A stretch of 64,000 bases of DNA, from NCBI GenBank assembly GCA_934757855.1, contig CAKVLR010000002.1:93825-157824 (forward strand), written 5' to 3'. Positions 2,675 through 22,892 of this stretch are shown here, in pieces. The translations under genes and the position numbers were made by a program. The notes below the pieces were generated by a model. That model had not been told where the DNA came from, searched no databases, and worked only from the letters and a program-made list of their open reading frames with translations. The stretch's first letter is position 1. Each line of letters starts with the position of its first letter. The DNA is from an uncultured Clostridia bacterium (lineage in GTDB: Bacteria > Bacillota > Clostridia > Christensenellales > UBA1242).

Positions 2675-2685
2675 GTTGAAAAGAA

Positions 2686-2727: not shown

Positions 2728-2728
2728 A

Positions 2729-4955: not shown

Positions 4956-4966
4956 AATTTTCTCCT

Positions 4967-5551: not shown

Positions 5552-5552
5552 T

Positions 5553-7424: not shown

Positions 7425-7442
7425 TTTTATCTCCTTTTAAAA

Positions 7443-8396: not shown

Positions 8397-8411
8397 AGAT
8401 TACCTTCCTAC

Positions 8412-9227
8412 TTAAAATTTCACGAACAAACGGCGTTTGTCGTAGCGTTTTATATCGTTAAACTCACAAAAAACAATCATTCCCAAGATACATTCGATAG
8501 GCAAGAAAATAAGTAGCCCCAAAATATTGCCAAGCCAAACAATTTTTAGCAAAGTGCAAATTGCGATAATCACAAACACAGTCACACACAACACTGCTTC
8601 AACAAGTAAAATTTGCCAAACATTGCGTGAAATTGCGTGTGTCGCATCTGAAAATGAAACATTTAGTGGCGAACCGTTTATCATCATACCTATACAAGTT
8701 TGAATAAATAATGTAAACGCACGCATAATCAAAAACATTCCCAAAATCAGCACGATATAATTAAATATTGCACTAAACACATTGCCTACCCCATTTTTTG
8801 CACACAAGAAATGTACAAAAAACATAAGTAGCATCATAACTAGATTGATAATGTAGGCAACAACTGCAAGAATTGCCACAACTTTTAACACACTCAGCAC
8901 ATTGCTGTTTAGGCTAAATCCGTTGACTACTGAGGGCTTGCCCGTTTTGAAGTGTCTTTCGATAAAGCCTAGGAATAGGCTCATTGACACAACCAACAAA
9001 ACTAAACCTAGTATTATCCACAACACATCAAGCCAACCTATCCCATATACCGCGGTATAAAATTGTCCAAAATTCATCAAAGTGTAATTTGGATATTCCA
9101 CCACAAATTGAAACAATGAAAAAGGCTTTAGGAGCGCACCTATAAAAATTGCAGGCGCGACACAAAAAATCACTACATAAATGAAATTTTTGCAATAATA
9201 ATTTAAGATATCTTTTAGATAATTCAT
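8412..9227 (-). CDS. Polytopic membrane protein, unknown function
   Basis: Multi-TM ORF. I prefer the internal ATG at 9227 (GGGGT 8 nt upstream) over the ORF-track start at 9248, which has no RBS. The start is uncertain. Confidence 0.55.
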   Translation of the reverse strand: MNYLKDILNYYCKNFIYVVIFCVAPAIFIGALLKPFSLFQFVVEYPNYTLMNFGQFYTAVYGIGWLDVLWIILGLVLLVVSMSLFLGFIERHFKTGKPSVVNGFSLNSNVLSVLKVVAILAVVAYIINLVMMLLMFFVHFLCAKNGVGNVFSAIFNYIVLILGMFLIMRAFTLFIQTCIGMMINGSPLNVSFSDATHAISRNVWQILLVEAVLCVTVFVIIAICTLLKIVWLGNILGLLIFLPIECILGMIVFCEFNDIKRYDKRRLFVKF

Positions 9228-9383
9228 AATTTTACCCCATTTCCGCATAGATAAAACGCAAATTTACAAACCAAAACTAACAAAATCTGCCGACTTTTCT
9301 CCCACGGCTATTAGATTTTTATACATTAATATAATATAGATAGGGTCATAAAAACCCAAAATTAATCCTAACTTATTGATTTC

Positions 9384-9412
9384 ATTATATCATATAATTT
9401 ATATTAAATCAA
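9384..9412 (-). promoter_or_regulatory. Sigma-A-type promoter for the membrane-protein/rnj operon
   Basis: The minus strand reads TTGATT (revcomp of 9407-9412), a 17-nt spacer, then TATAAT (revcomp of 9384-9389). Confidence 0.65.
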
Positions 9413-9432
9413 GTGTTTAGTATAAATTCTAC

Positions 9433-9466
9433 CAAAACAAAAAAGAGAGGCAAACTTGCCCCTCTC
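9433..9466 (-). terminator. Intrinsic terminator closing the phage-like cluster
   Basis: The minus strand reads GAGAGGGGCAAGTTTGCCTCTC followed by TTTTTTGTTTT, 20 nt after the holin stop. Confidence 0.75.
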
Positions 9467-9485
9467 GAAAATTGTTAACAAAAAA

Positions 9486-9902
9486 CTAATTGTTAGCATC
9501 AATTTTTGCGAAACCTTCTAGCACCTCTCTACGCACCTCATAAATAGGTTTTACATCATAATTTTTAGCAACATTATCAGCATTTTGACTATCTGTGCAA
9601 TCGCTTTTAGTTTCGTTTTCTACTTTTTCTTGCTCAACAACAAAATTTTCTTGCTTTACTTGATTTTCTTGTTCCATTTGTTCCTCTTTTTCCATATTAT
9701 TTATCAAATTTTGTGCAGGGTGCGTAATTATCCCTAACACAACAAACACACCCAGCACACTATTTACAATCGACATATAAATTTCTTCATTAATTACCAG
9801 CCCCAACGGCTTGCCTACTGCTTGCACAAGTAGCAAAACAGCACTCGCTAGCGACACCCAGAAACTGTAATTTTTGAGTCGATTTTTTAATTTTACGCTC
9901 AT
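9486..9902 (-). CDS. Holin, phi-LC3-like family, with a long acidic C-terminal tail
   Basis: The N-terminus LKNRLKNYSFWVSLASAVLLLVQAVG plus a second TM (VLGVFVVLGIITHP) matches my recollection of the phi-LC3/TIGR01598 holin pattern. It is the last gene of the phage-like cluster. Confidence 0.6.
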   Translation of the reverse strand: MSVKLKNRLKNYSFWVSLASAVLLLVQAVGKPLGLVINEEIYMSIVNSVLGVFVVLGIITHPAQNLINNMEKEEQMEQENQVKQENFVVEQEKVENETKSDCTDSQNADNVAKNYDVKPIYEVRREVLEGFAKIDANN

Positions 9903-9903
9903 A

Positions 9904-10836
9904 CTATTTCTCCGATTTTATTTTATAAACCTTACGGGTAGCAAAATCAATCGCAGTCTTGTACCAATCACCAATTTGAGCGTGAATTTCTGGGTCGTTT
10001 AAAATCTCAAACGCCTCGCGCTTGGTTAAATCTTGCATTTTTTCTAACAAATACATCATTTTTTCGTGTTGCTTATCTGCCGAAATTTTTGAATTAGCGC
10101 TCTCATTCATTTTTTCCCAATTTTTCAAAACCTTAGCGCGTTGCTCACTGATACGCTCGTTGTATTTCTCCGCATCTGATTGAGTTTTGAGATACTTTTC
10201 ATTAAGTTCATCAACTTTCTTTTCCAACTCGCTAGCATATTTAATATCAAATTTATCAAGTGCCACTTGAAATTCATTTTCTACGATACTACGCTTCAAT
10301 GAAATTTCCGCGAGTTTGCGATTTGCTTCATTCAGTGAGTTTTGCAATTCATAATCAATGCGGTCTTGCACACCTTGCTGACCATTAAAAGCAATACTGC
10401 TCGATTGAACACCGTTTGCAATATTTTGCGCTTGATTTGTTGCCAAACCTGATTGCAAATTTTGAGCATATTGATATTTTGAGTTTTCCAAATCTTGATT
10501 TACTTTTTCAGTTTGAAGTTTAATATTTTCAATATCAATATCGCGTTCACGATTAATTTTATCTATATTTGATTTTCGATAATCTTCTAACGCCCCACTT
10601 GCAACAACTTTCATCTCTCGCTCACTAGGCACATTTGAATTGATATAGTCCAGCCCCTCATAAATTTCATCAGGGTTAGGAGTTAAATATTTCCCCTCAT
10701 ATTCTTTGTCAATTTTTCGCAACCCCTCTCTTACCGCTTCAATATCATTTTCGGTAATTGTTTTAGGCGCATTGGTAGATTGTCCTTCCGTATTTTCATT
10801 TTGAACCTGTTTTTGTTCCTCTATTTCCAATGACAT
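9904..10836 (-). CDS. Phage-cluster protein, coiled-coil rich, unknown function
   Basis: The ORF ends 1 nt before the holin start. The ATG at 10836 has a GGAGGTG RBS 6 nt upstream, whereas the ORF-track start at 10851 lies inside that RBS. No lysin motifs recognised. Confidence 0.55.
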   Translation of the reverse strand: MSLEIEEQKQVQNENTEGQSTNAPKTITENDIEAVREGLRKIDKEYEGKYLTPNPDEIYEGLDYINSNVPSEREMKVVASGALEDYRKSNIDKINRERDIDIENIKLQTEKVNQDLENSKYQYAQNLQSGLATNQAQNIANGVQSSSIAFNGQQGVQDRIDYELQNSLNEANRKLAEISLKRSIVENEFQVALDKFDIKYASELEKKVDELNEKYLKTQSDAEKYNERISEQRAKVLKNWEKMNESANSKISADKQHEKMMYLLEKMQDLTKREAFEILNDPEIHAQIGDWYKTAIDFATRKVYKIKSEK

Positions 10837-10950
10837 AACAGCCACCTCCATATCTTAAATATTTATTTTTCTTAATTAACTTAATACTTTCCATAACCTT
10901 AATCTTACTTGTATAAATTTTACAACACCCCCGTTTTGACACGGAATTTA

Positions 10951-11010
10951 TAGTACTATGCTAGGTACTATGCATAGGTATTATGCATTGCATAGTACTG
11001 CATAGTACCT
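10951..11010. repeat. Nested palindromic array of the GGTACTATGCA subrepeat (2 forward and 2 reverse copies plus 1 degenerate)
   Basis: Copies are GTACTATGC 10953-10961, GGTACTATGCA 10964-10974, TGCATAGTAC 10989-10998 and TGCATAGTACC 10999-11009. 10964-11009 is a near-perfect palindrome. Confidence 0.9.
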
Positions 11011-11513
11011 CAATTTTTCACAAAAGAAAATTCTCTCCCCACAATCAATAATGTCATTTTATGAAACACTGCTTGGTCTGCCGTACCCGTATAGGTATAA
11101 ACACCTATATTAGAAGTTCCCGTTGAATTAGTAAAGTAGCCAGCCGTTCGAAGCGAATTGCTCCCTTTTATACTTTTACTTTCATAACCATTTCTAGCGC
11201 TATTAACATAAAGCGTAGAAGTAACTGACATTTTTGCGGAAGTAGTAACATCAGAAAACAAACATACCATTATGTACTCATTAGGTGGAAATGAAATTGC
11301 CCCTAAAAGACTATACTTTTCCGCAATAGAGTTTGAAGTAAAACCGTCATAGTCATATCTTTCAATTTTGACTTCATTTTCACCCAAACTTGTATCACTT
11401 GAATTGCTATTTTTACTTTCTAATACTTCCAATCTTTCAAGCAACAACTCAACTTTATCATCTAGTTCTTTTGCTAGTTTATAACCCTTTTTACCTTCAT
11501 CTTCAAATATCAT
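11010..11513 (-). CDS. Phage-cluster protein with an N-terminal coiled coil and a beta-rich C-terminal domain (possible fibre or receptor-binding protein)
   Basis: 167 aa with a GGAG RBS. The function is guessed only from position after the 497-aa ORF and from composition. Confidence 0.45.
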   Translation of the reverse strand: MIFEDEGKKGYKLAKELDDKVELLLERLEVLESKNSNSSDTSLGENEVKIERYDYDGFTSNSIAEKYSLLGAISFPPNEYIMVCLFSDVTTSAKMSVTSTLYVNSARNGYESKSIKGSNSLRTAGYFTNSTGTSNIGVYTYTGTADQAVFHKMTLLIVGREFSFVKN

Positions 11514-11522
11514 AGTTTTCTC

Positions 11523-13016
11523 CTAACACAATGCAATTTCTAACACTGGATTTGAAATTTCGCAAGTATCAGCAGTTGATTTTATAGTAATGCTAAATTT
11601 ATTGGCAATTACATTTATCGGTATACGGACAGTGGTATCACTCCCCTTCCCTTTAAATGTATATTTCTTGCCATTCGCGTTAATTTCCAAAATAATATCA
11701 GTTTTTGTATCAATATACAAAGATTTTATTACTTTTTTGTAAGTAGGATAGCCCATATCGGTAAATGGAGAGTCCCAAATTTTTTGAGTAGCCACTCCAT
11801 AAACCTTACCATCGTGCGTAACTTCACTAACGATATTACATTTTTCACCATTACTACATACTACCAATTTTGAATAATCACCCGTTTGAAATGCTGTCAA
11901 TCTACTAATATCAACGCCACGCAAAATATTTAACTCACCAGTATTTACATCAAATTCTAGCAGTGTATTATTAATATAAGTCGTGCTTTCACAACCAATA
12001 GTCCTACTATCATCATAGTTTAATTTGCAAGCCACATAATATTTACCAGCCAAAAATGCACCTACCGCGTTAGAGTTATCCACATTTTCAAAATATTTAT
12101 CTAACCCAAGTTGCAATTTTGTCATATCACCGCCATCAAAATAGTACAATCCATCTTTACACATCATCATTATGATTTTTCCGCACAAAACTGCAGTGTT
12201 GTGGTAAATTTTCCCCGTGGATAAGTACATATTTTTTACATTAAAATTACTTTGCAACCCCCAACCAGACACTCGCGTAATGCCAAAATCGCGTATTACA
12301 TACAAGTAATTATTTGATTCAACCACCTTTTTAAGTGGCCCGCGCTCATCAGTAAGTTCAATATAACCGCCATCAAATTCGCTAACTTTCCACGAAGTTG
12401 GGTCTAGGTCATCACTAAACCACAACTGACTTTGGTCGCCACCAGTTGTCGCAAACAACCTCCCCGCGTGTAGAGCAACTGAAGTAATTGACGGCACATT
12501 ATCAGTATATAAATGTCGCGTAGCCGTACTATAAACACCAATTATATTCGGCACACAACAAAGGAAACTATCTGTACCCTTTATCCTATAATTTACGCCC
12601 GCTGGTTCAACATTAAATGTTAACCCTGTATCTAAGTACAAATCTTCATAAGTAGATACACGCCAATAATACAATTTTTTATCATCGCAATAAATCATTA
12701 AATATGGTGAAAATCTTTTTCCAGCATTATCATAACGCCTAAAAAGCCACGCATTGATGATTTTTGTTACGCCTTCGGGTGTAGGTATTGACCTAGGCAC
12801 TCCCACAAGGTCTGGCATTTCCAAAACTTTTAACCCCAATCCCTCTTTCAGCGCACCCGAACTATAACTATAATTAAATGTGTTTACGGCATAATTTAGA
12901 GGTAAGATATTTTCACTTACTTTTGTATTGATACCTTTCGAAAAGTCACTCAATTTTACCTTTAATAAAGATTTATTGTTATTTGGTAATTTTTCAGTGT
13001 AAAACACTAAATCCAC
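11523..13016 (-). CDS. Phage-cluster structural protein, 497 aa (possible short-tail or nozzle component)
   Basis: Large beta-rich ORF downstream of the capsid/adaptor-sized genes. GTG start overlaps the upstream gene by 10 nt. Function inferred from position only. Confidence 0.5.
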   Translation of the reverse strand: MDLVFYTEKLPNNNKSLLKVKLSDFSKGINTKVSENILPLNYAVNTFNYSYSSGALKEGLGLKVLEMPDLVGVPRSIPTPEGVTKIINAWLFRRYDNAGKRFSPYLMIYCDDKKLYYWRVSTYEDLYLDTGLTFNVEPAGVNYRIKGTDSFLCCVPNIIGVYSTATRHLYTDNVPSITSVALHAGRLFATTGGDQSQLWFSDDLDPTSWKVSEFDGGYIELTDERGPLKKVVESNNYLYVIRDFGITRVSGWGLQSNFNVKNMYLSTGKIYHNTAVLCGKIIMMMCKDGLYYFDGGDMTKLQLGLDKYFENVDNSNAVGAFLAGKYYVACKLNYDDSRTIGCESTTYINNTLLEFDVNTGELNILRGVDISRLTAFQTGDYSKLVVCSNGEKCNIVSEVTHDGKVYGVATQKIWDSPFTDMGYPTYKKVIKSLYIDTKTDIILEINANGKKYTFKGKGSDTTVRIPINVIANKFSITIKSTADTCEISNPVLEIALC

Positions 13017-13576
13017 CGCCTTTTTTTGACAGTTTTCATAGATTTTGGGCTATTTCGCATCAAAATTGCACGCTCAAACATTACTTCCCACGCATCAGCA
13101 TCACTAAACATACCACTCATTAAATAATATCGACTAACCACCCCGATAGCAAAGAGCCTTTTTGAAACTTTATCTACCGCAATCTCGACTGAATCGGTAA
13201 AATTTGCAGAATATTGAGGCAAATATGTATAAATTACGCGTAATTTGCCATTTTTTGCTTCAAAATATGTAGGAAAAATAGAAAAATCAACATCATAACC
13301 GCGTTCATCTACTATTTTTAGAATATCTAAAACGGGTTTAGTTAGCGTGCTAAACTGCACTTTATCGTTAGAATTTGTGATAATTTCTTCATATTTTAAC
13401 GGAAAATACATAGTTGCCAAACTTTGAGTAACATCATTTACACAAGTAAGTAGTAGATTTAACTTTTCCGCTTGTTGGTCAGTTGCTGTTTCCGTTCCGC
13501 CTAATTGAGTTGTATCTTTTAGTGCGGTATCGCCTAAATATTCAGCAACTAGTGCAAGCACTTCCTTTACAGTCAT
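13007..13576 (-). CDS. Phage-cluster protein (possible head-tail adaptor)
   Basis: ATG at 13576 preceded by GGAGAG. The position after the capsid genes suggests a connector role. No motif recognised. Confidence 0.45.
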   Translation of the reverse strand: MTVKEVLALVAEYLGDTALKDTTQLGGTETATDQQAEKLNLLLTCVNDVTQSLATMYFPLKYEEIITNSNDKVQFSTLTKPVLDILKIVDERGYDVDFSIFPTYFEAKNGKLRVIYTYLPQYSANFTDSVEIAVDKVSKRLFAIGVVSRYYLMSGMFSDADAWEVMFERAILMRNSPKSMKTVKKRRWI

Positions 13577-13587
13577 AATCTCTCCTT

Positions 13588-13968
13588 TTATACCCATTCA
13601 GTTGAATAACTATCTTTAAAATCACAGTCATCAACTTTATTTTTGGCATAATTAAACATTTCTCGCGCTTTCCAAGAAGCCTTGTCCAATACTTTATTTT
13701 TTTGGTCCAACTCCAATTTTTCATTGTGAGCAGTGATTTCTGCAATAATATTTTGCATATTTTCAATACGCGTTTTGCGCAATTTATTTATCACATTGAA
13801 ATTTAAGCCATTGTCGCATACTATGCAAAAAGTATTTGTTTTTTGCGATTTATTGTGTATTTCATAACGATTTTTGGTGGTATTATACACTGCATAGTAC
13901 CCTTTGTCTATTTTTTTAATGCGCTCTACAATATTAAAAGCGTCCGATTTGATTTTGATTAATGCCAT
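13588..13968 (-). CDS. Phage-cluster hypothetical protein, 126 aa
   Basis: ORF tightly packed after capsid paralog B. It contains two copies of the dispersed subrepeat (13819-13827 and 13891-13901). Confidence 0.5.
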   Translation of the reverse strand: MALIKIKSDAFNIVERIKKIDKGYYAVYNTTKNRYEIHNKSQKTNTFCIVCDNGLNFNVINKLRKTRIENMQNIIAEITAHNEKLELDQKNKVLDKASWKAREMFNYAKNKVDDCDFKDSYSTEWV

Positions 13969-13977
13969 ATTTTACTC

Positions 13978-15156
13978 CTAGTTAGTAACAGTAAGTTTTA
14001 ATACTCTGTTTGGTCTATCGCAAATTAAGTCGCAATATTTTACAAGTGTAGCGATATGCGTTGCATAATTTTCGCGTTGATGCAATACTTCACCTTTATT
14101 ATTTGACAACCAAGTCCAGTCGCATAATTGATGCAAATGGAACACGCTTGAATCAAGCAAGTAAGCAGAATTTTCAGGACAGAAACGAGTTGCAACCACA
14201 GGCACACCATTAAATGTAATAGTTTTGCTCCCTCCTGCCAAATTCATAACATCAGTATTGTAAGAACTTGCTTTTAGTTTGTCTTGCAATTTCCTACGGA
14301 AACTAAAACTACTAGTAATGAAATCCACATTTCCGTCATAATTTAACCTAATATCATCTATTAGTTGCATAAATTTAGGCATAGTGAATTGTGCAGTAGT
14401 CAAACTTGTTGTACTACCTGTCATATAAGAAACAGTCGAACGGTCTATGCCATAAAGTGTTGTGATAGTAGAATCACAAATACCAGCAAGACCTATAAAT
14501 TCCTTTCCTTTTGAATTTGTTAAATAAATAGAAATTTTCGTTTCATCTTCGTATTTTTCTGGAATTACAGTGCTTAATGTAATAACAGAATCTTTGTCAT
14601 CAACATCGACAATTTCTACATTTTTCAATTCAGGCATAAGTGTACCTGTTGAATCATACACATCTACACGCATACCGATTGCACCAACCGAACCTTCTGC
14701 AAGTTTTAGACTAGCCTCACCTGGTGTAAAAGTGTCCGAAGTGCCAAGCAACCCTGTACCGTTGCTATACAACATTCTCCTAAAATTGAATTTACTTGAT
14801 TCAATTAGATTTTCCATCTCTGCATTTAATAAATTTAAGAAAGCACCCGCCTCATCACGACTAGCGCGAATCGCCTTATCACTAATCTCAATAGTACCGT
14901 AAAGGTTTTTGAGTTTAGAAGTAAGAGTTGCGTAAGAATTTTCTTTTGCAGTTGGCAAAGCACCTATTTCAGTACCCGCGCCAATACCGCCGTTAATTCC
15001 AAGCGGAATCATTTTTTTAATCTCATTTCCTGCAACACTTTGAGTGGTTTGCTCAATTTTTGCAAAAAATGGGTCGACCGCGTTTTTTAGTTGGTCGGTT
15101 ATTACTTCTAGATAAACATTTTTCAATGCATTATCCGCAGTTGACAATGAAATCAT
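13978..15156 (-). CDS. Major capsid protein paralog B (392 aa)
   Basis: Collinear similarity to the upstream 392-aa ORF along the whole length (GINGGIGAG, LKNLYG.IEI.DKAIRAS, HQLCDW.WL, ATLVKY.DLIC.RPN). Its position after the scaffold-like gene fits a capsid protein. Confidence 0.6.
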   Translation of the reverse strand: MISLSTADNALKNVYLEVITDQLKNAVDPFFAKIEQTTQSVAGNEIKKMIPLGINGGIGAGTEIGALPTAKENSYATLTSKLKNLYGTIEISDKAIRASRDEAGAFLNLLNAEMENLIESSKFNFRRMLYSNGTGLLGTSDTFTPGEASLKLAEGSVGAIGMRVDVYDSTGTLMPELKNVEIVDVDDKDSVITLSTVIPEKYEDETKISIYLTNSKGKEFIGLAGICDSTITTLYGIDRSTVSYMTGSTTSLTTAQFTMPKFMQLIDDIRLNYDGNVDFITSSFSFRRKLQDKLKASSYNTDVMNLAGGSKTITFNGVPVVATRFCPENSAYLLDSSVFHLHQLCDWTWLSNNKGEVLHQRENYATHIATLVKYCDLICDRPNRVLKLTVTN

Positions 15157-15175
15157 ATTAATTTTTACCTCCCCA

Positions 15176-16354
15176 TTATAAATTGTAAATTAATGCTTGC
15201 GCATTTGGTCTGTTACAAATTAAGTCAGCGTACTTAACCAAAGTAGCACTGTAAGTAGCATAACCTTCTTTTTGTTTCAAAATTGAGCCATCGTTGTGAG
15301 TCAACCATTCCCAGTCGCATAATTGATGCAAAGTAAACATATCAGTATTGAGTAACATAATGTTGCTAGTGGTTTCAAATCTATTTCTCAAAACTGGAAT
15401 ACCGCAGAATGATACGCTCGTAAAGCCACCTTTTAGGTTAGTGCTATCCAAGTTTTTAGCATATCCAGAAAGCATACCCATAATTGTGTACACAATGTCA
15501 CCACCACACAAAATTACATTTGGTTGGTAGTTTGACTTCATTTCTACTTCATCAATTAATTTTTGGATAAAAGTTTCATTAAATGTGTCGCTGGTGTTTT
15601 TTGCGTATTTTATAGGCATCAAATTTTGATAATTTGCTCTATTTAAGCCATAAAGTGTAGTGCTACTACCAAAAATTGCGCCAAGACCAGTCAATTCTCT
15701 GTCTTTACTGCCCTGAATGTAAACTTTGTATTTTGAAATATTAGCAGTGGTAAAAGTAGATGAAACTGTACTCAAAGTTATCTTTTTGTTACTTCTATCC
15801 ACTTTTACAACTTCCACACCAGACATATTTGCATCTAATAGGTCACTACTGTAAAAGTCAAGTAGCATACCCTCCATAAATACTGTTGCATTTGAAACGG
15901 TCATTGTTTTGTTTGTTGCATCAATCGCAGTGATTGAGCCACCCAAACTTCCTGTACCATCTCCATAAAACATACGACCCAAGTTAAATTTACTTGCTTG
16001 CAATAATCCGTCCATTTCAGCAGTCAACAAGTTTACAAACGCGCCCTCATCATTTTCTGATGCACGAATTGCTTTATCAGTTATCTCAATTTTACCATAA
16101 AGGTTTTTAAGAGAAGTCGTAAAACTTGCATACTTGCTTTCACGACTGGTTGGCAAAGCGCCGTCCTCATCACCAGCGCCTATACCTCCATTAATTCCAT
16201 ACGGAACAAGTTTAATAATGTTTCTACCATAAACATCAGCCGAACTTTGTTTAATCATATTAAAAATAGGGTCAACCTGAGTGTTCAACTGATTGCTCAA
16301 TGCTTCCAAATACACGGTTTTTAGTGCATTTTGTGCATTACTTAATGTAATCAT
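15176..16354 (-). CDS. Major capsid protein paralog A (392 aa)
   Basis: First ORF after the scaffold-like gene, with size and composition typical of capsid proteins. It is a paralog of 13978-15156. Confidence 0.6.
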   Translation of the reverse strand: MITLSNAQNALKTVYLEALSNQLNTQVDPIFNMIKQSSADVYGRNIIKLVPYGINGGIGAGDEDGALPTSRESKYASFTTSLKNLYGKIEITDKAIRASENDEGAFVNLLTAEMDGLLQASKFNLGRMFYGDGTGSLGGSITAIDATNKTMTVSNATVFMEGMLLDFYSSDLLDANMSGVEVVKVDRSNKKITLSTVSSTFTTANISKYKVYIQGSKDRELTGLGAIFGSSTTLYGLNRANYQNLMPIKYAKNTSDTFNETFIQKLIDEVEMKSNYQPNVILCGGDIVYTIMGMLSGYAKNLDSTNLKGGFTSVSFCGIPVLRNRFETTSNIMLLNTDMFTLHQLCDWEWLTHNDGSILKQKEGYATYSATLVKYADLICNRPNAQALIYNL

Positions 16355-16364
16355 ATTTTATCTC

Positions 16365-17210
16365 CTATTTAAAAAAATTTTTTGCCAGTTCTCTTGCCTC
16401 TGCCATATTTTGCACAGTTTTATGCACTTCGGCGCTATATTGTGCGCCCTCGGCTTTTGCAATAACTGACGGTGCAGACTTGTGAGTCTTAACTCTATTT
16501 AGGTAATCATTTACAATCAAATTGTATATTTTTTGATTATTTAAAGCACTTTTTGCAATAAAATCATCGTTTATATCTATTTTTTGCTCCTTTTTTTGCA
16601 AAATTTTGACCCAAGAGTTTAACAAAGGGGCTTCGCTACTTTGCACAGCCTTGTCTTTGACTAGCATTTCCGCTATCTCTTTTGAATGATTTTTTGCATC
16701 GGGAAATTCCTCAAAAAATTTATTTACCTTTTCGTTCCAGTCCGCACTTTCCCATATTTTGGTAACGCTTTTGGGGGCTTGCGCCTTGTCCAAATTTTCA
16801 TCAGGGGTAATTTGTACCTTATCTGATGAGCCGTTTTCTTCAATTTTAGAGACAACCTCTCCTTCATTTACAGAAGAAATCTCTTGTCTAAAATCGTTTA
16901 AATCATCATTTTTTTGTGAATTTTCTTCATTTTGAGTGTTAATTGGGGTATTTTCGCTTGATTTTGCGCATAGTTCTGCCTTGTTTTCGGCGTTTTCAGG
17001 TTCAGCGTTAGTTTTTGAGATATTTTCATCGCTATTTTGCATATTTTTCTTCATTTTTGCCAATTCCATAGCATTTTTGGTAAAACAACTTCTCAAACTA
17101 TCGTAGGCATCTTTAAGCGTTTTTACCGACTTGAATGTTCCTAAATCAGTACCATCATTTTTTAACTCCCCCTCAAAAGAAGGCAATTCAAAAGGTAATT
17201 TTTCTTCCAT
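16365..17210 (-). CDS. Scaffold-like protein (acidic, low complexity)
   Basis: 281 aa, E/N/K-rich and predicted helical, located between the portal and capsid genes. Confidence 0.4.
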   Translation of the reverse strand: MEEKLPFELPSFEGELKNDGTDLGTFKSVKTLKDAYDSLRSCFTKNAMELAKMKKNMQNSDENISKTNAEPENAENKAELCAKSSENTPINTQNEENSQKNDDLNDFRQEISSVNEGEVVSKIEENGSSDKVQITPDENLDKAQAPKSVTKIWESADWNEKVNKFFEEFPDAKNHSKEIAEMLVKDKAVQSSEAPLLNSWVKILQKKEQKIDINDDFIAKSALNNQKIYNLIVNDYLNRVKTHKSAPSVIAKAEGAQYSAEVHKTVQNMAEARELAKNFFK

Positions 17211-17221
17211 TTCCCTAACTC

Positions 17222-19138
17222 CTATTTTTCAATATTATTGTTACTTTCGGCAAGCAAAGTTAATTTTTTAAATTGCTTGTGCTTGCGAATATGTGCTAAC
17301 ATTTTGTCACGAATTTCAGGTTTTTCGCGTGAAATTTTATCAAATTCTCCACTTAACATAAAAGCAATGTGAGCATTGATATGCAAATCGTGGTCGTGAA
17401 TTTCCATAACCTCAGGTTCTTTTCCGTCCAAAAATTCTATATTCTCACGCTTCGCTTTTTCAAGTTGTAGATTATTGTTATCAAGTGCATCTTCCCAAAT
17501 ACCAAATCCCAACAACTCCAAAATTTTTAGCCTCATCGCATTTGACAACTTGCCATTTTCATCGTGTAGTAACCCAGCATTTAGTAAATCAAAAATCATA
17601 CTGCGCTTTTGAGCGACTGTTTCGCCGAGTTCTGTTTCCGTTTCAAACACTACATCATCAGTAGTAATCGCACGATTGTCCCAGTAAAATAATTTACTTG
17701 TTCCGTTTTCACCTACTAATTTACTCATTCTCTGCGCATTTACAAATTGCTTGTATAAACGCAAAATTTGAATACCTATTTCTTTAATTGCAAATTTTAT
17801 GTACTCACCACTTGATGAAATTCTCATATCTTCTTGCTCCATTAAAATTTGCAACGCAACACCACTCATATTTGAAATTGCGCTTGCGTTTGAACCGAAT
17901 AAATCACTTACGCCACTGATATTTAAAAATTCATTTAGCAATCTTTCTTCTTCATCTCTAAAATCAGAAGGCAAAGATGCGTTCGACATAAATTGAGGAG
18001 CGCGTGAACCTTGTCTATAAACCAAAATTTTCCCTGGGCTTAAACCTTCTTCTTCCAAATTATCAATATCGACAGAGCCGTCCTCAACGCTTACTATCCC
18101 CATACAAAGTCTATTCATAAATTCGTGTTTACGGTTTTTGATTGCGTTGTAGGCGCGTTGAACAGGAATAGAGCGTTCAACTATACTTGTACCCCAAAAT
18201 AACGAAGGTTGTCCAACACTAATTTGTCGAATAAACGGAAAACCGCGTTCGCCATTTTGCAAATTTTTGTAAGGCAATTCCCCATCATAGAGCAATTTAT
18301 CGCCAGCAATAATTACAAGCCTACCATCAGGGCGGTCTTTTGTCGGCATTTCGTAGCGTTCGATAACCATAGCGTGGTCGTGTTTTATCGTTTTTGTCAT
18401 TTTTGCAGATTTGCTAGCATATCCCAGACCACCCGCTACTTGCGAATTTGATAAATTATATGTATCAATATCTTCACCTTTAACCGTTACGCCCCAGTGT
18501 TTTTTAATTGTTTCCACATGGTAGGCACGAGCGTGAATTAGACTGCGACAACTATCTAGTGACTCACACGAATTGCTATCAGGGTAAATTTCAAATGGTG
18601 AACATACGATAACATCGACATCACCCTCAAAAATCTTTTCACCCAAAGTCGTTAGCCCAACCACGGAGCCTGCACTATCGTTCCATACTACCTTGTAAAA
18701 ACTCGTTCCACAAATTTCACTCCATTTGGTCGCTTGCGAAACCAATTCGCTAAGTTCAAGTTTTGAAGATACTGAATCTAAAATATCTTTACAAATATGT
18801 GCATTGCTTACATCATCTTCATCACCACTCGCAGGCAACACTGTCATAGTCGGACGGACTTTCGCCAATTTGGAAAGCCTTGTTTCCACCAACGGTGCTA
18901 TATGATTGTAAACTTCTCGTTCTTGCCAAAAATACTGCTTGTCAAAATCATCAAGCGTATCATTTGAACCAATCCCACAATACTGATTGCCCATAACAAA
19001 ATTGATATTTAATTGCCATTGAGCATCAAATGGTCGGCGCTCCTCTTGCCTTCGCTCAAAATCTTTTTTAATTTCACCGACCAGTTCTCTTTCTGCTAAA
19101 TTTTTAGATTTTTGCGCATTTTTTTGCGTATTTTGCAT
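17222..19138 (-). CDS. Portal protein (candidate)
   Basis: 638 aa with a GGAG RBS. Size and position between the terminase genes and the scaffold/capsid genes are those of a portal. The family was not identified by motif. Confidence 0.6.
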   Translation of the reverse strand: MQNTQKNAQKSKNLAERELVGEIKKDFERRQEERRPFDAQWQLNINFVMGNQYCGIGSNDTLDDFDKQYFWQEREVYNHIAPLVETRLSKLAKVRPTMTVLPASGDEDDVSNAHICKDILDSVSSKLELSELVSQATKWSEICGTSFYKVVWNDSAGSVVGLTTLGEKIFEGDVDVIVCSPFEIYPDSNSCESLDSCRSLIHARAYHVETIKKHWGVTVKGEDIDTYNLSNSQVAGGLGYASKSAKMTKTIKHDHAMVIERYEMPTKDRPDGRLVIIAGDKLLYDGELPYKNLQNGERGFPFIRQISVGQPSLFWGTSIVERSIPVQRAYNAIKNRKHEFMNRLCMGIVSVEDGSVDIDNLEEEGLSPGKILVYRQGSRAPQFMSNASLPSDFRDEEERLLNEFLNISGVSDLFGSNASAISNMSGVALQILMEQEDMRISSSGEYIKFAIKEIGIQILRLYKQFVNAQRMSKLVGENGTSKLFYWDNRAITTDDVVFETETELGETVAQKRSMIFDLLNAGLLHDENGKLSNAMRLKILELLGFGIWEDALDNNNLQLEKAKRENIEFLDGKEPEVMEIHDHDLHINAHIAFMLSGEFDKISREKPEIRDKMLAHIRKHKQFKKLTLLAESNNNIEK

Positions 19139-19152
19139 AAATTTTCTCCTTT

Positions 19153-19341
19153 TTAAGCATTAAATTTACTTTTTACCGATTTAGGGACCAAGTTTTTCCC
19201 TAAATTTTCATAGAGGTCACGAGCGCATTTTTCACACAAGCAAACCGAATACTTGCTAAAATTTATCTTGTATTTAGGTGCGTTCGTACACCCAACATCG
19301 CCCGCGCATTTTACCTTTCGAGTTTGAATAGTTAGTTGCAT
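19153..19341 (-). CDS. Small Cys-rich (zinc-ribbon-like) phage-cluster protein, 62 aa
   Basis: ATG at 19341 with an AGGAGGTG RBS. The ORF-track start at 19404 overlaps the upstream gene. Cysteine pattern is C-x5-C ... C-x-C-x2-C. Confidence 0.5.
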   Translation of the reverse strand: MQLTIQTRKVKCAGDVGCTNAPKYKINFSKYSVCLCEKCARDLYENLGKNLVPKSVKSKFNA

Positions 19342-19342
19342 A

Positions 19343-19633
19343 CTACACCTCCTTTTTGATTTGTTGCAAGATTTCAGCGCGCATTTTTTGCAATTCTTCA
19401 TCACTAAAATCGCGCAAATTATTCATATTCGTATCAAAACATCGTTCCAGCAAAGCGCGGGCAGCGTTTATATCAGGAGGAATATGTTTTTTTGTTACCT
19501 TTTTTTTGATTAATTTTAAATCTTCGCCCCCAGTACCCCCCGCATATTCCTCCACAACCTCATCGACCGTGTAGCCCATTGCTTTTTTCAATAAAGATTT
19601 TGCTAATTTTTCCGTTTCATTTTCGTTTTTCAA
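19343..19633 (-). CDS. Small phage-cluster protein, weakly TerS-like
   Basis: 96 aa. AMGYTVDEVVEE...KKVTKKHIPPDINAARALLE resembles the C-terminal pattern I recall from Firmicute-phage small terminases. It lies downstream of TerL rather than upstream. Confidence 0.35.
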   Translation of the reverse strand: MKNENETEKLAKSLLKKAMGYTVDEVVEEYAGGTGGEDLKLIKKKVTKKHIPPDINAARALLERCFDTNMNNLRDFSDEELQKMRAEILQQIKKEV

Positions 19634-19634
19634 C

Positions 19635-21083
19635 CTACCACCCCCTATTTAATAAATGCCTACGGTTTTTGGCAATTAATTTTTCTTTATGTTGCTGAAT
19701 TAATGTAGGTTGTGGTTTTGCTTCCATATGCGCATCGGGGCGCGACATAATGTAATATCGCAACTCGTCCATTGCGTGGTCATCTTTTTTAATCGGGACA
19801 TCTGCATTACCCCACCAATATCCCTTAATTTCGCGTATCATATTTACACAAGTAGAAAAAATAAACAATTTTGCTTCATTTTTTGCATTTTTTAGATAAC
19901 TTTTGACTCTTGATATGCCAGAAAACAAATCTTTATTAACATTCGTATTCACATTGATGCCGTAATCATAAAATAATTCACTTACGCTTTTTGGAGAGGC
20001 AAGCGTTTTTTGATTTGCAGCGGAGTCAATCAACGCATTGATTTTTCCATTGAAACCAACAGGCCAATTCAACTGCTTGCACTTTTCCAAAATGCAGTGT
20101 GCGTGGTGCTCAATAGTTTTTTTAGCCTCATAATGCTCAGCAATTACATAAACATTTCCATCATAATCGACTGCATACCAGTGAGCACTTAACGGATTGT
20201 GAAGCCCTGGGTCAATACTGATATTGTCATACCAATCTTGCGGAACACTAAAAGGCTCGATAATATGCGTATTTACATCAAATTCACTATAAACTAGTCC
20301 GCCTTTTGCACAAAATTTACCATAACGCCTACTTTCCAATTCATCTGGGCTTAAAGTTTTTGTCAACGCTTCAATTTCCTTTTTTGCCAAAAATGGATTA
20401 TCACCCCACTCCATTTCTTCACACCAAATTTCTTCATCGTTTGCTTCATTTAAGTAAATTTTGTCATATACCCAAGTTAAGCCTTTCAATGGAGTCATTG
20501 TGCCAAAAATTTCGCCTTGTTTATCCAAAACTCTCATTCGACACTCAGTATAAATATCAAACGGTGGTTCTTCATCAAACCATACCCAGTCAAGACTTGT
20601 TCCTTGAAATTTCTCTCTGCCTTGGTCGCAAGTCTTAAAGCCAATTTTGCTTGTCGTGCCAAAAATATTTTTAACCAAAATATAGTCAATCACGCCATTT
20701 TCTGCCGAGTCTTTTCTACCCGCAAGCATTACAATATCTGCAATCCAATCGGGATTTAAGTAATACAAAATTTTATTTTGCGCCACATCGCGCTGAACTT
20801 GCTGACTAAGGCTGACCACCCAGCCATCACGCGGTTTATTTTCTTTATATGGGTGAATACCTCGAGCGAGCCAAACCGCTTCTACAGCACCGCATTGAGA
20901 TTTTCCACTACGGTTTCCACCGAAAACCCAGCGGTTACGCTTCTTGTTTTTATGAAATAAAAGTTGCTTTTTATGAACAATTTTACCCGTGTTATATTTG
21001 GACAAATGGTCGTTTTCTGCCCTACGCTTCAATTCTTTATCAATCAAAATTATTTTATTAATTAAGTCATCGGTATCCATCAT
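19635..21083 (-). CDS. terL: Terminase large subunit
   Basis: 482 aa with Walker A GGNRSGKS, Walker B-like LDWVWFDEEP, and a C-terminal nuclease-type region with conserved acidic residues (IDPG..., DDHAMDELRY). Confidence 0.85.
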   Translation of the reverse strand: MMDTDDLINKIILIDKELKRRAENDHLSKYNTGKIVHKKQLLFHKNKKRNRWVFGGNRSGKSQCGAVEAVWLARGIHPYKENKPRDGWVVSLSQQVQRDVAQNKILYYLNPDWIADIVMLAGRKDSAENGVIDYILVKNIFGTTSKIGFKTCDQGREKFQGTSLDWVWFDEEPPFDIYTECRMRVLDKQGEIFGTMTPLKGLTWVYDKIYLNEANDEEIWCEEMEWGDNPFLAKKEIEALTKTLSPDELESRRYGKFCAKGGLVYSEFDVNTHIIEPFSVPQDWYDNISIDPGLHNPLSAHWYAVDYDGNVYVIAEHYEAKKTIEHHAHCILEKCKQLNWPVGFNGKINALIDSAANQKTLASPKSVSELFYDYGINVNTNVNKDLFSGISRVKSYLKNAKNEAKLFIFSTCVNMIREIKGYWWGNADVPIKKDDHAMDELRYYIMSRPDAHMEAKPQPTLIQQHKEKLIAKNRRHLLNRGW

Positions 21084-21204
21084 CTCTCCAAATCAACTAA
21101 AATTTATATTTTTCGCTAATTTATGGTTTAAAATTCATAAAAAAACCAATAATTGCATATGGAAATTTCTTCCTAATTTGGTAAAATACTACAAGGAGTC
21201 GGTT

Positions 21205-22020
21205 ATGCGTAAATATTTATACATTTTTAGTGTATTTTTATTCATTTTAAACTTTGTTTATTTTTGTAATATAATCCCCGCAACTGCTGATACGCCGACA
21301 TATTTTAGAATAAATAATGACTCGGTATATCTATATCGCACACCTGTTGCGGACACTGAAAACAACAACGCTTATTTTAAATTACCTAACACATATTTTG
21401 TAAAATTTAATAGCACATTTGATGAAAATTTTTTAAATGTGACTTATAGAGATTTTACTGGTTATGTATTAAAAAGTGATGTGGTGGCAGTATATTCTAT
21501 CCCTGAAATTCCATTTGAAACTAACAGAATTTTTAATATTCAAGGAGTAGCAAATTTGGTCATTCGCTCCGCCCCAAACACTCAAAGTGAATATCTAGGA
21601 ACTATTCCATTCAATGCAACTGACATAACTTATTTCGGCGAAATCGAAGGTGAACAAGCAAATCTAGCGTTATCAAATACTTGGTATTTTTGTCGTTACA
21701 AAAGTTTTGAGCAAGGAATAATTACTGGCTATATTTACGCACCACTTACAACAGGTTTAACAGAATTTGTACCGAACACCGAAGAAGTGCTTACCGAGCC
21801 AACTCAAAATGCAAACTCAAATTCGGTACTAGCACCCGAACTAAAAACTGGGTCAAATTTAATATTAATTTTATGCCTAACAGTGCCTGCAATTTTACTT
21901 TTAATTTTGGTATTTAGACCAGAAAAACGCAAAAAGAAGCGTGAAGCAACTCGTGCTATTGCAAACTTAAATCGCTTATCCTTACCAGACAAAAATGATA
22001 AAAATACATTCGATTTTTAA
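21205..22020 (+). CDS. Surface protein: signal peptide, 2 SH3b-like domains, C-terminal TM anchor and basic tail
   Basis: True start is the ATG at 21205 (AAGGAG RBS). The first 72 codons of the ORF-track ORF are antisense to terL. The C-terminus carries the hydrophobic stretch LILILCLTVPAILLLILVF followed by RPEKRKKKRE. Confidence 0.65.
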   Translation: MRKYLYIFSVFLFILNFVYFCNIIPATADTPTYFRINNDSVYLYRTPVADTENNNAYFKLPNTYFVKFNSTFDENFLNVTYRDFTGYVLKSDVVAVYSIPEIPFETNRIFNIQGVANLVIRSAPNTQSEYLGTIPFNATDITYFGEIEGEQANLALSNTWYFCRYKSFEQGIITGYIYAPLTTGLTEFVPNTEEVLTEPTQNANSNSVLAPELKTGSNLILILCLTVPAILLLILVFRPEKRKKKREATRAIANLNRLSLPDKNDKNTFDF

Positions 22021-22045
22021 ATTTTTGCGTATTATTGCCTTAAAT

Positions 22046-22092
22046 CTAGGTACTATGCAATGTACTATGCAGTATTTTTTAGATACTATGCA
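22046..22092. repeat. Three direct copies of the (G)GTACTATGCA subrepeat, overlapping the stop codon of the regulator gene
   Basis: Copies are GGTACTATGCA 22049-22059, GTACTATGCA 22062-22071 and ATACTATGCA 22083-22092. CTAGGTACTATGCA (22046-22059) is identical to 10961-10974. Confidence 0.9.
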
Positions 22093-22637
22093 CGCCCATA
22101 AACAGCACTCACCAAACGGTCTAGCCTACTCATTTTTGGTATTATGATAGGTCTTAGACCTTTTTCTATTCCGTGCATTTTTACCAAATAAGAATTGTAA
22201 ATTCCAACTATCCAGCCCTCATTTTCTAGCATTGTTTCTATGTCTTTATATGTGTAACCAAGATTGAAAATTTGCTCCATAATCCCCTGCAAAGCCTTAT
22301 TTATGTATCTATGAATCGTACGGCGATTTGTATGCATTTCCTCAGCCAAAGTTTGCGCATCAATTTTATCTATATAATATTTAACCAACAATGTGGCATC
22401 ATCTTGATTTGTATTTTTTATACTTTCTTCAATCAACAATTTAACTGAAAGCAATCTCTTTTTTCGTTGAATTAAATCAATAACTGCTTCCATATCTTCG
22501 ATAGTATTTGACTCACCTTGATATAGGTTTCCACTAAAACTAGACTTTTCCACCACAAGGCGGTCAATACTTTTTATTATCCTCCCTAGATATTTGTACG
22601 ACTCAAATAAAGTCTTTGCCCATAAAAGATTTTTCAT
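22086..22637 (-). CDS. Putative transcription regulator with a sigma-70 region-4-like HTH (phage late-activator-like)
   Basis: ATG at 22637 with a GGGAGG RBS 7 nt upstream. The HTH-like segment is TLAEEMHTNRRTIHRYINKALQGI. No region-2-like segment recognised. Confidence 0.4.
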   Translation of the reverse strand: MKNLLWAKTLFESYKYLGRIIKSIDRLVVEKSSFSGNLYQGESNTIEDMEAVIDLIQRKKRLLSVKLLIEESIKNTNQDDATLLVKYYIDKIDAQTLAEEMHTNRRTIHRYINKALQGIMEQIFNLGYTYKDIETMLENEGWIVGIYNSYLVKMHGIEKGLRPIIIPKMSRLDRLVSAVYGRA

Positions 22638-22892
22638 TTTTTTACCTCCCAATCGCTTCGACAAAATTTGACAAATTTCGCCAATTTTTGCCCTTACGAA
22701 AACTACTATATATTACGATTGTTCGATTTGTCAATATGTTGTGACAGGTTTTTTGAATATTTTTGAAAATTTTTGTAAATTATTCAAAAATCATTCCTTT
22801 TTGTTATTATCGAACTTATGTTCTAGTATAATTATAAATTCTTGACACCTAGCGTACATATTTACAAATTAATAAAAAATTCTTTTATTTTG

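Follow-up and report, generated by a model that had tools for sequence, protein, structure and literature searches.

What is a compact set of phage head, packaging, and tail genes doing in a bacterial chromosome that shows, around it, none of the genes by which a phage replicates, integrates, or maintains lysogeny? The question is raised by positions 9486 to 21083 of the window, by which we mean the whole 64,000-nt stretch analyzed here, from contig CAKVLR010000002.1 of an uncultured Clostridia bacterium (assembly GCA_934757855.1). A preliminary description of this DNA had left three options for the locus, namely, a decaying prophage remnant, a domesticated locus for particles like gene transfer agents (GTAs), and the morphogenesis half of a capsid-forming satellite. 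The evidence given below indicates that the locus is very probably a domesticated chromosomal derivative of a short-tailed phage resembling P22, SU10, and Pa223, and we consider it probable that it is a GTA-like element of podovirus type inherited vertically in gut Clostridia (Christensenellales-like).

Gene content of the locus

The locus comprises 13 co-directional open reading frames (ORFs) on the minus strand, transcribed from the gene for the large terminase subunit, TerL, to that for a holin. Spacing between them is 0 to 20 nt or a short overlap, the exception being 158 nt between 10851 and 11010. The ORFs were compared with profiles in Pfam, PHROGs, and NCBIfam, and AlphaFold2 (AF2) models were searched against PDB structures with Foldseek. 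Ratios of nonsynonymous to synonymous substitution (dN/dS) come from a comparison of the window with L162, the closest relative with DNA, which has the same synteny and 94% identity in the major capsid protein (MCP); related loci are numbered with the prefix L. The features in order of transcription are as follows.

19635-21083, minus strand: TerL, large terminase subunit (PF03237 Terminase_6N, 7e-11; phrog_2, 7e-32); dN/dS, 0.024
19343-19633, minus strand: small terminase (TerS)-like protein of 96 amino acids (aa) (phrog_309, 8.5e-7), conserved in 70 loci; dN/dS, 0.075
19153-19341, minus strand: Cys-rich protein of 62 aa, CxxC...CxxC, zinc-ribbon-like as read from its sequence; dN/dS, 0.12
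17222-19138, minus strand: portal of the P22/SU10 type (PF16510 P22_portal, 2e-22; PF23899 SU10_portal, 1.7e-7; phrog_156, 5e-36); dN/dS, 0.018
16365-17210, minus strand: scaffold-like acidic protein of 281 aa, named from position and composition only; dN/dS, 0.205
15176-16354, minus strand: MCP1, major capsid paralog 1, 392 aa, HK97 fold (NF033394); dN/dS, 0.033
13978-15156, minus strand: MCP2, major capsid paralog 2, 392 aa, HK97 fold (NF033394); dN/dS, 0.054
13588-13968, minus strand: p126, 126 aa, conserved in 61 loci; dN/dS, 0.033
13007-13597, minus strand: p196, 196 aa, probable portal-to-nozzle adaptor (SU10_adaptor, subthreshold); dN/dS, 0.056
11523-13016, minus strand: p497, 497 aa, beta-propeller tail nozzle/hub by AF2 and Foldseek (phrog_3287, phrog_511); dN/dS, 0.064
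11010-11513, minus strand: p167, 167 aa, hypervariable slot, N-terminal coiled coil and beta-rich C terminus; dN/dS, 0.16
9904-10851, minus strand: cc315, Q/E/K-rich coiled-coil protein of 315 aa (DUF7934; PF25588, 8e-11); dN/dS, 0.14
9486-9902, minus strand: holin of the Phage_holin_1 family, 138 aa (PF04531, 1.8e-8; phrog_297, 1e-14); dN/dS, 0.095
9443-9466, minus strand: intrinsic-terminator-like hairpin (10-bp stem with 5 GC pairs) and T-run directly after the holin gene, at the end of the operon

The preliminary description had counted twelve ORFs, and its own list adds up to the 13 found here. Its roles for TerL, the TerS-like ORF, the portal, the two capsid paralogs, and the holin agree with the profile matches, and the terminator that it placed past the holin corresponds to the hairpin and T-run at 9466-9443. 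It had also allowed that profile searches might show the ORFs not to encode virion proteins; instead, virion and packaging families were matched.

Taken together, the genes provide for all parts of a head, for a motor that packages DNA, and for a short tail of the P22/SU10 class, in which the adaptor is a weak match only. The AF2 model of p497, built with 48 homologs (pLDDT, 85.6; pTM, 0.84), is a beta-propeller that in Foldseek matches the Pa223 tail in the PDB (9nwi_Y; E, 5e-19; TM-score, 0.70). Further matches were to GP4 (8jov), VP1 (8zkk; TM-score, 0.72), P22 gp10 (8eap_D; E, 3e-12), the SU10 nozzle, and T7 gp12. All of the best structural matches are podovirus tail nozzle or hub proteins, and the model thus identifies p497 as a tail nozzle of the P22 gp10/SU10 nozzle/T7 gp12 class. 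Sequence-profile searches of the PDB with the nozzle, adaptor, and MCP families gave nothing significant, so that structure prediction was needed.

The neighboring p196 matches the Pfam family SU10_adaptor with an E value of 7.5e-4 and 20.4 bits, below the curated cutoff of 27. The alignment is nearly full length (residues 8 to 179 against profile positions 1 to 179 of 194), and p196 lies between the capsid genes and the nozzle gene and is conserved in 73 loci, which makes it the probable portal-to-nozzle adaptor. The P22/SU10 virion module is thus represented by portal, nozzle, and HK97-fold MCP and, weakly, by this adaptor. The preliminary description was correct in finding no sheath, tube, or tape measure, in that no such families appeared among the Pfam and PHROG matches; their absence reflects a podovirus ancestor and not the loss of a tail, and a tail module is present in the adaptor-like ORF and the nozzle.

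The slot after the nozzle is hypervariable. p167 had no profile matches and has homologs only in the closest relatives, and in other lineages the slot is occupied by unrelated proteins that also have a coiled-coil N terminus. This pattern fits a slot for a tail needle, fiber, or receptor-binding protein, which p167 would then be. The combination of an adaptor-like protein, a nozzle, and a variable fiber-like module suggests particles able to adsorb.

The two capsid proteins, which are 43% identical to each other, scored 225 bits (MCP1) and 220 bits (MCP2) against NCBIfam NF033394, capsid_maj_Podo (cutoff, 80), and matched phrog_14242 at 2e-47 and 2e-34, respectively. For MCP1, the AF2 model (pLDDT, 83) confirms the HK97 fold, with Foldseek matches to the capsids of Pa223, SU10, HK97, and Mic1; the nearest viral model is that of the MCP of Arthrobacter phage Jasmine (TM-score, 0.81; 25% identity). 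Two MCP genes occur in 12 loci, namely, the window, L002, L005, L009, L010, L012 to L015, L023, L032, and L056, and most other lineages have a single one. In a neighbor-joining tree of these 12 loci, first and second copies formed separate clades with mirrored topology, which indicates one old duplication with both copies retained. Both paralogs are also constrained (dN/dS, 0.033 and 0.054). In phage T4, the capsid proteins gp23 and gp24 are divided between hexamers and pentons, and by analogy MCP1 and MCP2 may share the work between hexamers and pentamers, an attractive idea.

The TerS-like protein was compared with that of L145, a locus at positions 2040 to 16075 of a 60-kb IMG/VR contig (UViG_3300033388_005061). 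L145 has the same gene order, with 34% identity in the MCP and 40% in the portal, and its gene set includes a replication initiator, a 165-aa TerS (phrog_309, 5.7e-66), TerL, portal, tail spike, and nozzle. By this gene content it looks like a genuine podophage-like distant relative that stands for an outgroup or ancestor-like state. The 96-aa protein of the window aligns only to residues 66 to 127 of the L145 TerS, whose N-terminal part matches DNA-binding families, and its phrog_309 match is confined to profile positions 197 to 238. The N-terminal DNA-binding part has therefore been lost, and the TerS-like protein is, by alignment, truncated relative to that of a true phage relative.

The remaining ORFs are less clear. 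The Cys-rich ORF has no Pfam match; the 62-aa gene was also called in L162 and L164, and its cluster (c12) is found in 25 loci. The scaffold-like ORF had no match in Pfam or PHROGs and is the fastest-evolving core gene; in 79 loci, the space between portal and MCP is occupied by a member of its ORF cluster. No significant profile match was found for p126, which from its position is a putative head completion or connector protein. Members of the DUF7934 family occur in 32 related loci, and a virion-associated or ejection role for the 315-aa protein is a guess. In several lineages the holins carry low-complexity N/S/E/D-rich C-terminal tails of 100 to 180 aa (L009, 16442-17263; L023, 17538-18338; L024, 13595-14359; L036, 13633-14445; L043, 16931-17557). 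A search for lysin domains in these extended holins, and in the proteins that fill the variable slot elsewhere in the family, revealed only low-complexity tails and coiled coils. An Rfam scan detected no RNA family within the locus.

Pfam annotation of the 64-kb window detected no integrase, replication gene, repressor, or lysin, only housekeeping and sporulation genes, and the absences named in the preliminary description (recombinase, replication, repressor, and lysin) therefore hold within the window as far as Pfam reaches. The window contains no tRNA genes, and since its long direct repeats consist solely of the MCP1 and MCP2 genes, it has no att-like repeats.

Conservation and inheritance of the unit

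More than 5293 of the 8000 candidates scored were homologs of MCP1; those listed are proteins of Clostridia metagenome-assembled genomes (MAGs), on contigs of up to 0.7 Mb. A scan of one genome per GTDB species placed relatives of the locus in at least 591 species representatives, nearly all of them MAGs with a Clostridia or Christensenellales label, and the details given here are from the best 80 of these at least 591. The best 80 are labeled Clostridia, Christensenella sp., “Ca. Onthoplasma” (Christensenellales according to NCBI), “Ca. Heteroclostridium,” “Ca. Protoclostridium,” and “Subdoligranulum sp. CAG:314.”

Clustering of the ORFs of related loci gave a conserved order of regulator, SH3 gene, TerL, TerS, (Cys-rich ORF), portal, scaffold, MCP, p126, p196, nozzle, variable slot, (DUF7934), (BhlA-type holin), and holin, which holds down to about 47% MCP identity. 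Flanking genes identified by eye in relatives, several of them backed by precomputed Pfam annotation, include rnj, a sporulation sigma factor gene, a polysaccharide deacetylase gene, an SSB-like gene, an ABC transporter gene, rsmE, dnaJ, tsaEB-rimI, glyS/glnS, and radC. The deacetylase gene, the SSB-like gene, or rnj is a neighbor common to many loci.

Two departures from this order were observed. Eleven of 60 loci (L020, L022, L042, L044, L046, L049, L052, L060, L061, L078, and L085) have no TerL, regulator, or SH3 gene in the 5 to 10 kb upstream of TerS; housekeeping genes (ABC transporter, rsmE, and dnaJ by eye) are there instead, and the genes from portal through holin are intact. A surface protein of 730 to 1116 aa with a C-terminal transmembrane helix (cluster c25) is encoded between TerL and TerS or directly upstream of TerS in L033, L065, L070, and L097 and also in L020 and L052.

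A few carriers have Oscillospirales labels, namely, L071 (a 6978-bp contig with 51% GC, Subdoligranulum sp. APC924/74) and L075 (Oscillospiraceae). If these labels are right, the family reaches Gemmiger/Subdoligranulum-type lineages; binning or label errors are equally possible. GTA-like packaging without FpGTA, the GTA of Faecalibacterium prausnitzii, has been reported for Gemmiger and Subdoligranulum (PMC12946183).

Intactness was assessed in 60 species loci with enough flanking sequence. Portal and MCP were each recovered as one uninterrupted alignment in 60 of 60 loci, TerL was uninterrupted in all 49 loci that have it, and the nozzle was detected in 56 of the 60. The only clear core-gene disruption noticed was in L030 (about 10001 to 11200), where a frameshift or an assembly error divides the sole MCP gene into two ORFs (242 and 152 aa). 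Between the window and L162, dN/dS of the element genes ranged from 0.018 for the portal to 0.205 for the scaffold-like gene, with values of 0.018 to 0.075 for TerL, portal, both MCPs, p126, p196, p497, and the TerS-like gene; the host genes of the flank gave 0.034 (rnj), 0.053 (mem1), and 0.082 (mem2). Synonymous divergence was comparable, with dS of 0.5 to 1.9 for element genes and 0.8 to 1.0 for host flanks.

The element has also diverged together with its neighbors. Over 153 pairs, pairwise identity of the portal correlated with that of the flanking deacetylase with a Pearson coefficient of 0.92, and that of TerL with a coefficient of 0.86; the relation to RNase J was weaker (Spearman, 0.16 to 0.66), with only 10 loci. 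Base composition followed the same pattern, GC and third-position GC (GC3) of the core genes tracking those of the flanks (r = 0.91 for GC and 0.92 for GC3) over GC3 values from 0.21 to 0.79. Intact genes, purifying selection, co-divergence, and host-matched composition fit neither a decaying remnant nor a mobile satellite nor an active temperate phage.

A remnant that merely seems intact in this window is, accordingly, extremely improbable. The missing integrase, replication, lysogeny, and lysin genes and the split MCP of L030 are what such decay could leave behind, but in a remnant one would also expect frameshifted genes, genes lost here and there, and dN/dS values close to 1. Instead, the same gene set recurs in at least 591 species with uninterrupted core genes, dN/dS is 0.02 to 0.2, like that of neighboring rnj, and composition matches the host over the whole GC3 range.

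It is also very improbable that the locus is half of a satellite of the capsid-forming phage-inducible chromosomal island (cf-PICI) kind or an active temperate phage with its integration and replication genes elsewhere or just outside. The compact size is like that of capsid-forming satellites, and 71 IMG/VR contigs classified as viral encode this MCP. Against this, a Pfam scan of 135 unclustered proteins from the immediate flanks of about 70 loci found only housekeeping families to recur, with no recurrent integrase or recombinase and no recurrent primase, Rep, or AlpA; neither att repeats nor tRNA genes were found in the window; and the housekeeping flanks co-diverge with the element. The functions of an autonomous phage, namely, replication, lysogeny or integration, and an endolysin, are absent from the window and do not recur in the flanks of the approximately 70 loci. 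Furthermore, a nozzle and an adaptor-like protein are encoded within the locus itself, whereas cf-PICI tails are derived from a helper.

The IMG/VR relatives (L092 to L144, e.g., L100, L105, L110, L129, L131, and L139) point the same way. Those with at least 40% identity include the regulator and SH3 gene of the host side, and L129 has even rnj, so that they look like chromosomal fragments probably misclassified as viral. No close phage was present in INPHARED: a near-identity DNA search with the whole locus against its 50,697 phage records gave no match, and MCP1, used as a protein query, retrieved only MCPs of actinophages, with identities of 21 to 27%, the best isolated-phage match being Arthrobacter phage Jasmine (25 to 27%).

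Of the three options in the preliminary description, the remnant and the satellite half are thus contradicted by intactness, selection, co-divergence, composition, and the finding that at about 70 loci no gene for an integrase or for replication recurs. The comparison with relatives that it had proposed, for intact ORFs and purifying selection, gave intact cores and low dN/dS, which supports domestication; in its third option, that of a domesticated GTA-like locus, the domestication part stands on conservation, intactness, selection, co-divergence, and composition, and GTA function is predicted. The locus has the genetic traits of the GTA class, that is, chromosomally fixed phage structural and packaging genes without replication, integration, or lysogeny genes, inherited clade-wide under purifying selection.

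Control, proposed working, and function

Beyond TerL, the conserved order includes two further genes with their own signals.

21118-21157, minus strand: promoter-region motif TGCAATTATTG(G/T)TTTTTT...TTTTAAAC upstream of TerL
21202-22020, plus strand: divergent membrane protein of 272 aa with signal peptide, SH3_3 domain(s), C-terminal transmembrane helix, and short basic tail; dN/dS, 0.073
22086-22637, minus strand: regulator of 183 aa, like sigma-70 region 4, RinA, and ArpU (phrog_36, 7e-11); dN/dS, 0.055
22734-22705, minus strand: sigma-70-like promoter of the regulator, TTGACA-18-TATAGT, 11 of 12 matches
22750-22790: palindrome of 20 + 20 nt, arms TTTTTGAATATTTTTGAAAA / TTTTGTAAATTATTCAAAAA, immediately upstream of the regulator promoter

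The regulator family occurs in 48 loci, and the SH3 membrane-protein family (cluster c8, 50 members, of which 14 of 37 show SH3_3, at best 7.6e-10) adjoins TerL in most loci; regulator and SH3 gene together accompany TerL in most relatives. The regulator matched TIGR01636 (RinA) at 2.8e-5, below the cutoff of that model, as well as models of extracytoplasmic function (ECF) sigma factors, and its family profile matched region 4 of the ECF sigmas SigL and SigW in the PDB (1.5e-5). It is presumed to be the activator of the particle operon. The promoter that it serves would be the motif TGCAATTATTG...TTTTAAAC, which lies in the 118 nt that separate the SH3 gene from TerL and occurs nowhere else in the window; inspection by eye showed it to be conserved in 11 loci, over a range of TerL identity from 94% down to 66%. 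The palindrome is a possible operator for an upstream signal. An inverted repeat upstream of TerL, seen in several relatives and considered as a terminator or operator, was rejected: conservation of its left arm does not extend to the window or to L162, and only the right-hand motif is therefore treated as conserved. With the SH3 gene and regulator included, the whole unit extends beyond the 9486-21083 first reported, from about 9443 to 22790 (about 13.3 kb). The preliminary description had proposed control in trans; since the regulator and the SH3 gene are conserved beside TerL as part of the unit, control is probably not in trans only.

We propose that the unit works in five steps. Expression of the regulator from its own sigma-A-type promoter would turn on the 13-gene operon through the conserved promoter that precedes TerL. 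A prohead would be formed from scaffold, portal, and one or both capsid proteins, and TerL would fill it by a headful mechanism, aided by a TerS without its DNA-recognition domain; the cargo would be host DNA taken up with little sequence specificity, as in FpGTA and in RcGTA of the Alphaproteobacteria. Adaptor, nozzle, and the lineage-variable fiber or needle would complete a short tail. Particles would then be freed by holin-dependent lysis, with a lysin encoded elsewhere, no lysin, or another lysis route, and would bind related cells through the variable tail protein.

Several points weigh against this reading. The locus is known from genes alone, and particles, packaged host DNA, and transfer are predicted. 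Neither the locus nor the 64-kb window shows an endolysin gene. The 11 of 60 loci without an adjacent TerL imply either relocation of the missing genes or a loss of DNA packaging. The nearest isolated-phage MCP comes from a 46.7-kb phage, so that the head might be large enough for the whole locus. With respect to the evidence for domestication, dS is near saturation, which makes the dN/dS values approximate; co-divergence was measured against linked genes only and not against a genome phylogeny; and when cluster members were listed in search of a cultured carrier, all named ones were MAGs.

Some of these points also bear on what the particles are for. A domesticated particle could serve a function other than transfer, for example, as a PBSX-like killer or bacteriocin, as a device for DNA release or lysis (for biofilm or nutrients), or as a vehicle for other cargo, with DNA packaging incidental or lost; we regard this as unlikely, though as the main alternative. 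Domestication is well supported, yet the data are silent on the selected function, a variable tail protein and a holin fit any adsorption or lysis function, and 11 of 60 loci have no adjacent TerL. In addition, PBSX packages DNA yet acts as a tailocin (PMC12946183). Against such a function, TerL and the TerS-like gene are among the most constrained genes (0.024 and 0.075) and TerL is uninterrupted in 49 of 49 loci, which argues that DNA packaging itself is under selection; podovirus particles, moreover, have no contractile killing apparatus. GTA-like transfer of host DNA therefore remains the reading that we prefer.

Release raises a further alternative, in which particle production is tied to sporulation, so that the mother cell would produce the particles and set them free when it undergoes programmed lysis. 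Sporulation genes lie at 44605-46101 (spoIIAA-spoIIAB-sigF) and 62537-64000 (YpeB, SleB-like, SpoIIR, and SipL, located at or beyond the end of the window; also L161) and mark the host as a spore-former. In many relatives the locus adjoins a sporulation sigma factor gene, a SpoIIGA-like gene, and the deacetylase gene (all three by eye), and mother-cell lysis would account for the missing endolysin. The regulator promoter, in contrast, resembles those of the sigma-A type, no promoter for a sporulation sigma factor was recognized, and neighborhood alone is weak evidence; a literature search found neither a link between sporulation and GTAs nor an earlier description of the locus. We judge this alternative improbable.

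The genes around the unit correspond to the preliminary description, which had placed the rnj operon on one side and surface-protein genes with a sigma-r4-like regulator on the other. On the holin side, two polytopic membrane genes are followed by the RNase J gene, rnj. These two genes are absent from relatives wherever the element is not beside rnj and thus belong with rnj rather than with the element. On the other side, the SH3/transmembrane gene and the regulator gene are followed by a gene for a surface protein of 583 aa with SH3 and then by one for an LRR_5 protein. The surface protein (22956-24707, plus strand) has a signal peptide, a large ectodomain, an SH3_3 match (4.8e-5), and a C-terminal transmembrane helix; its family is found in 16 loci, with analogous large surface proteins in others, and is often, not always, divergent from the regulator, so its membership in the unit is uncertain.

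A 10-mer, GTACTATGCA, was found in 25 copies in the window with at most one mismatch, against 3.7 expected. Copies in both orientations are grouped in small clusters (10953-11008, 22050-22092, 34387-34396, 41645-41666, 44552-44594, and 63610-63642), which mostly fall between genes. The 10-mer is a dispersed host repeat like repetitive extragenic palindromes, and it has colonized two intergenic gaps of the phage-derived unit, with five direct and inverted copies at 10953-11008, the only sizeable intergenic gap of the operon. Other genes recognized by Pfam in the window are gyrBA, those for a polysaccharide deacetylase and an SSB-like protein, spoIIAA-AB-sigF, obg, tsaE, ddl, nusG, and rplKA, together with genes for glycolytic enzymes, RNase J, a U32 peptidase, and a uracil-DNA glycosylase. 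A partial bacterial 16S rRNA gene occupies 1-1210 on the minus strand (Rfam RF00177, 1234 bits, model positions 1 to 1230 of 1533).

Comparison with known particle systems

To our knowledge, very few families of GTAs or GTA-like particles have a known genetic basis, one of them in gut commensals (FpGTA, 2026) and two in Gram-positive bacteria. We cautiously place the locus among domesticated phage particles of the GTA-like kind, assigning it to none of the GTA families described to date. Its interest lies in its breadth (at least 591 species), in the scarcity of known GTA families, and in the unusual, conserved capsid duplication. If our reading is correct, the locus represents an independently domesticated family across hundreds of species of a heritable, health-associated gut lineage. 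The question of who moves the chromosomal DNA in the gut virome fraction, and by what machinery, becomes testable, and the capsid-paralog pair, the truncated TerS, and the missing lysin offer handles on how a phage becomes a host organelle.

With podophages of the SU10/Pa223/P22 class, the locus shares the P22/SU10 portal, an SU10-adaptor-like protein, a nozzle of the gp10/gp12 class, and an HK97-fold MCP. These phages and L145 have replication genes and a full-length TerS, both of which the locus lacks; the phages also have tail spikes, lysins, and genomes of about 40 to 60 kb, against about 13 kb for the locus.

cf-PICIs are mobile from strain to strain and have an integrase, replication and regulatory modules, att sites, and tails taken from helper phages. 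Like them, the locus is a small cluster with its own terminase, portal, capsid, and head-completion genes. None of their mobility and integration features (integrase, att, pri-rep, AlpA/Stl) was found at the locus, however, and the locus has its own nozzle.

RcGTA is siphovirus-like, is encoded by several unlinked loci, and is controlled by the host regulators CtrA and GafA. The locus resembles it in order-level vertical inheritance, purifying selection, a TerS without DNA-binding specificity, and the absence of replication and integration genes, but RcGTA belongs to an unrelated lineage, and no sequence relationship to the locus was seen.

PBSX of Bacillus subtilis is an element of about 28 kb that is myovirus-like, with sheath, tube, tape measure, and its own lysin, and its late genes are under the sigma-like Xpf. 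Both it and the locus are chromosomally fixed in a spore-forming Firmicute, lack replication functions, and have a sigma-like late activator, presumed in the case of the locus. PBSX particles are released by lysis, which for the locus is proposed only. The locus matched no contractile-tail families; it is podovirus-like, with a nozzle-type tail, has no lysin, and is about 13 kb long.

The closest parallel is FpGTA, a chromosomal operon of about 10.5 kb that is near-ubiquitous in its genus and encodes a TerS without DNA binding, TerL, portal, scaffold, an HK97-type MCP, a P22-gp10-like nozzle, and an abundant coiled-coil protein (PMC12946183). Its podovirus-like particles, 40 nm in size, contain about 9 kb of host DNA, and a second operon 125 kb away encodes fibers, holin, and endolysin (PMC12946183). 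The loss of the DNA-binding domain from its TerS was reported with the RcGTA small terminase as a precedent (PMC12946183). The locus is likewise a compact gut-Clostridia operon, of about 10 kb, with a TerS without DNA binding, TerL, portal, scaffold, nozzle, and coiled-coil protein; neither has integrase or replication genes, and the PDB nozzle structure 8eap, cited for FpGTA, was also matched here.

There are also differences. FpGTA has its fibers, holin, and endolysin unlinked, whereas the locus has its holin and a fiber-like ORF in cis and a regulator and SH3 gene attached, and no second operon of this kind was found in the 64 kb seen. The window lineage has two MCP paralogs, unlike FpGTA, whose MCP is annotated as N4-gp56 family (PMC12946183). 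Both MCPs of the window match only NF033394 in NCBIfam (E ≤ 0.01), and the NCBI product name of their relatives is “phage major capsid protein”; compared by annotation and not by sequence, the capsid genes thus apparently come from a different phage lineage. On this comparison of annotations, the locus is probably an independently derived analogue of FpGTA and not a member of its family. Particles and cargo have been demonstrated for FpGTA, and the present locus is represented by its genes.

For the gut Christensenellaceae MAGs HGM11616 sp900761075 and QANA01 sp019420265, GTA-like packaging of fragments of 4.1 and 6.3 kb, respectively, was recorded as well, with no locus identified (PMC12946183). 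If our reading holds and those two genomes carry the locus, it would be a concrete candidate for the machine behind this packaging. A more far-reaching reading, which as a whole we offer only tentatively, is that of an order-wide, vertically inherited podovirus-type GTA that arose independently of FpGTA, that underlies the 4- to 6-kb packaging in Christensenellaceae, and that would combine specialized capsid paralogs, control by a sigma-like factor paired with a peptidoglycan-binding SH3 membrane protein, and lysin-free release, possibly via mother-cell lysis.

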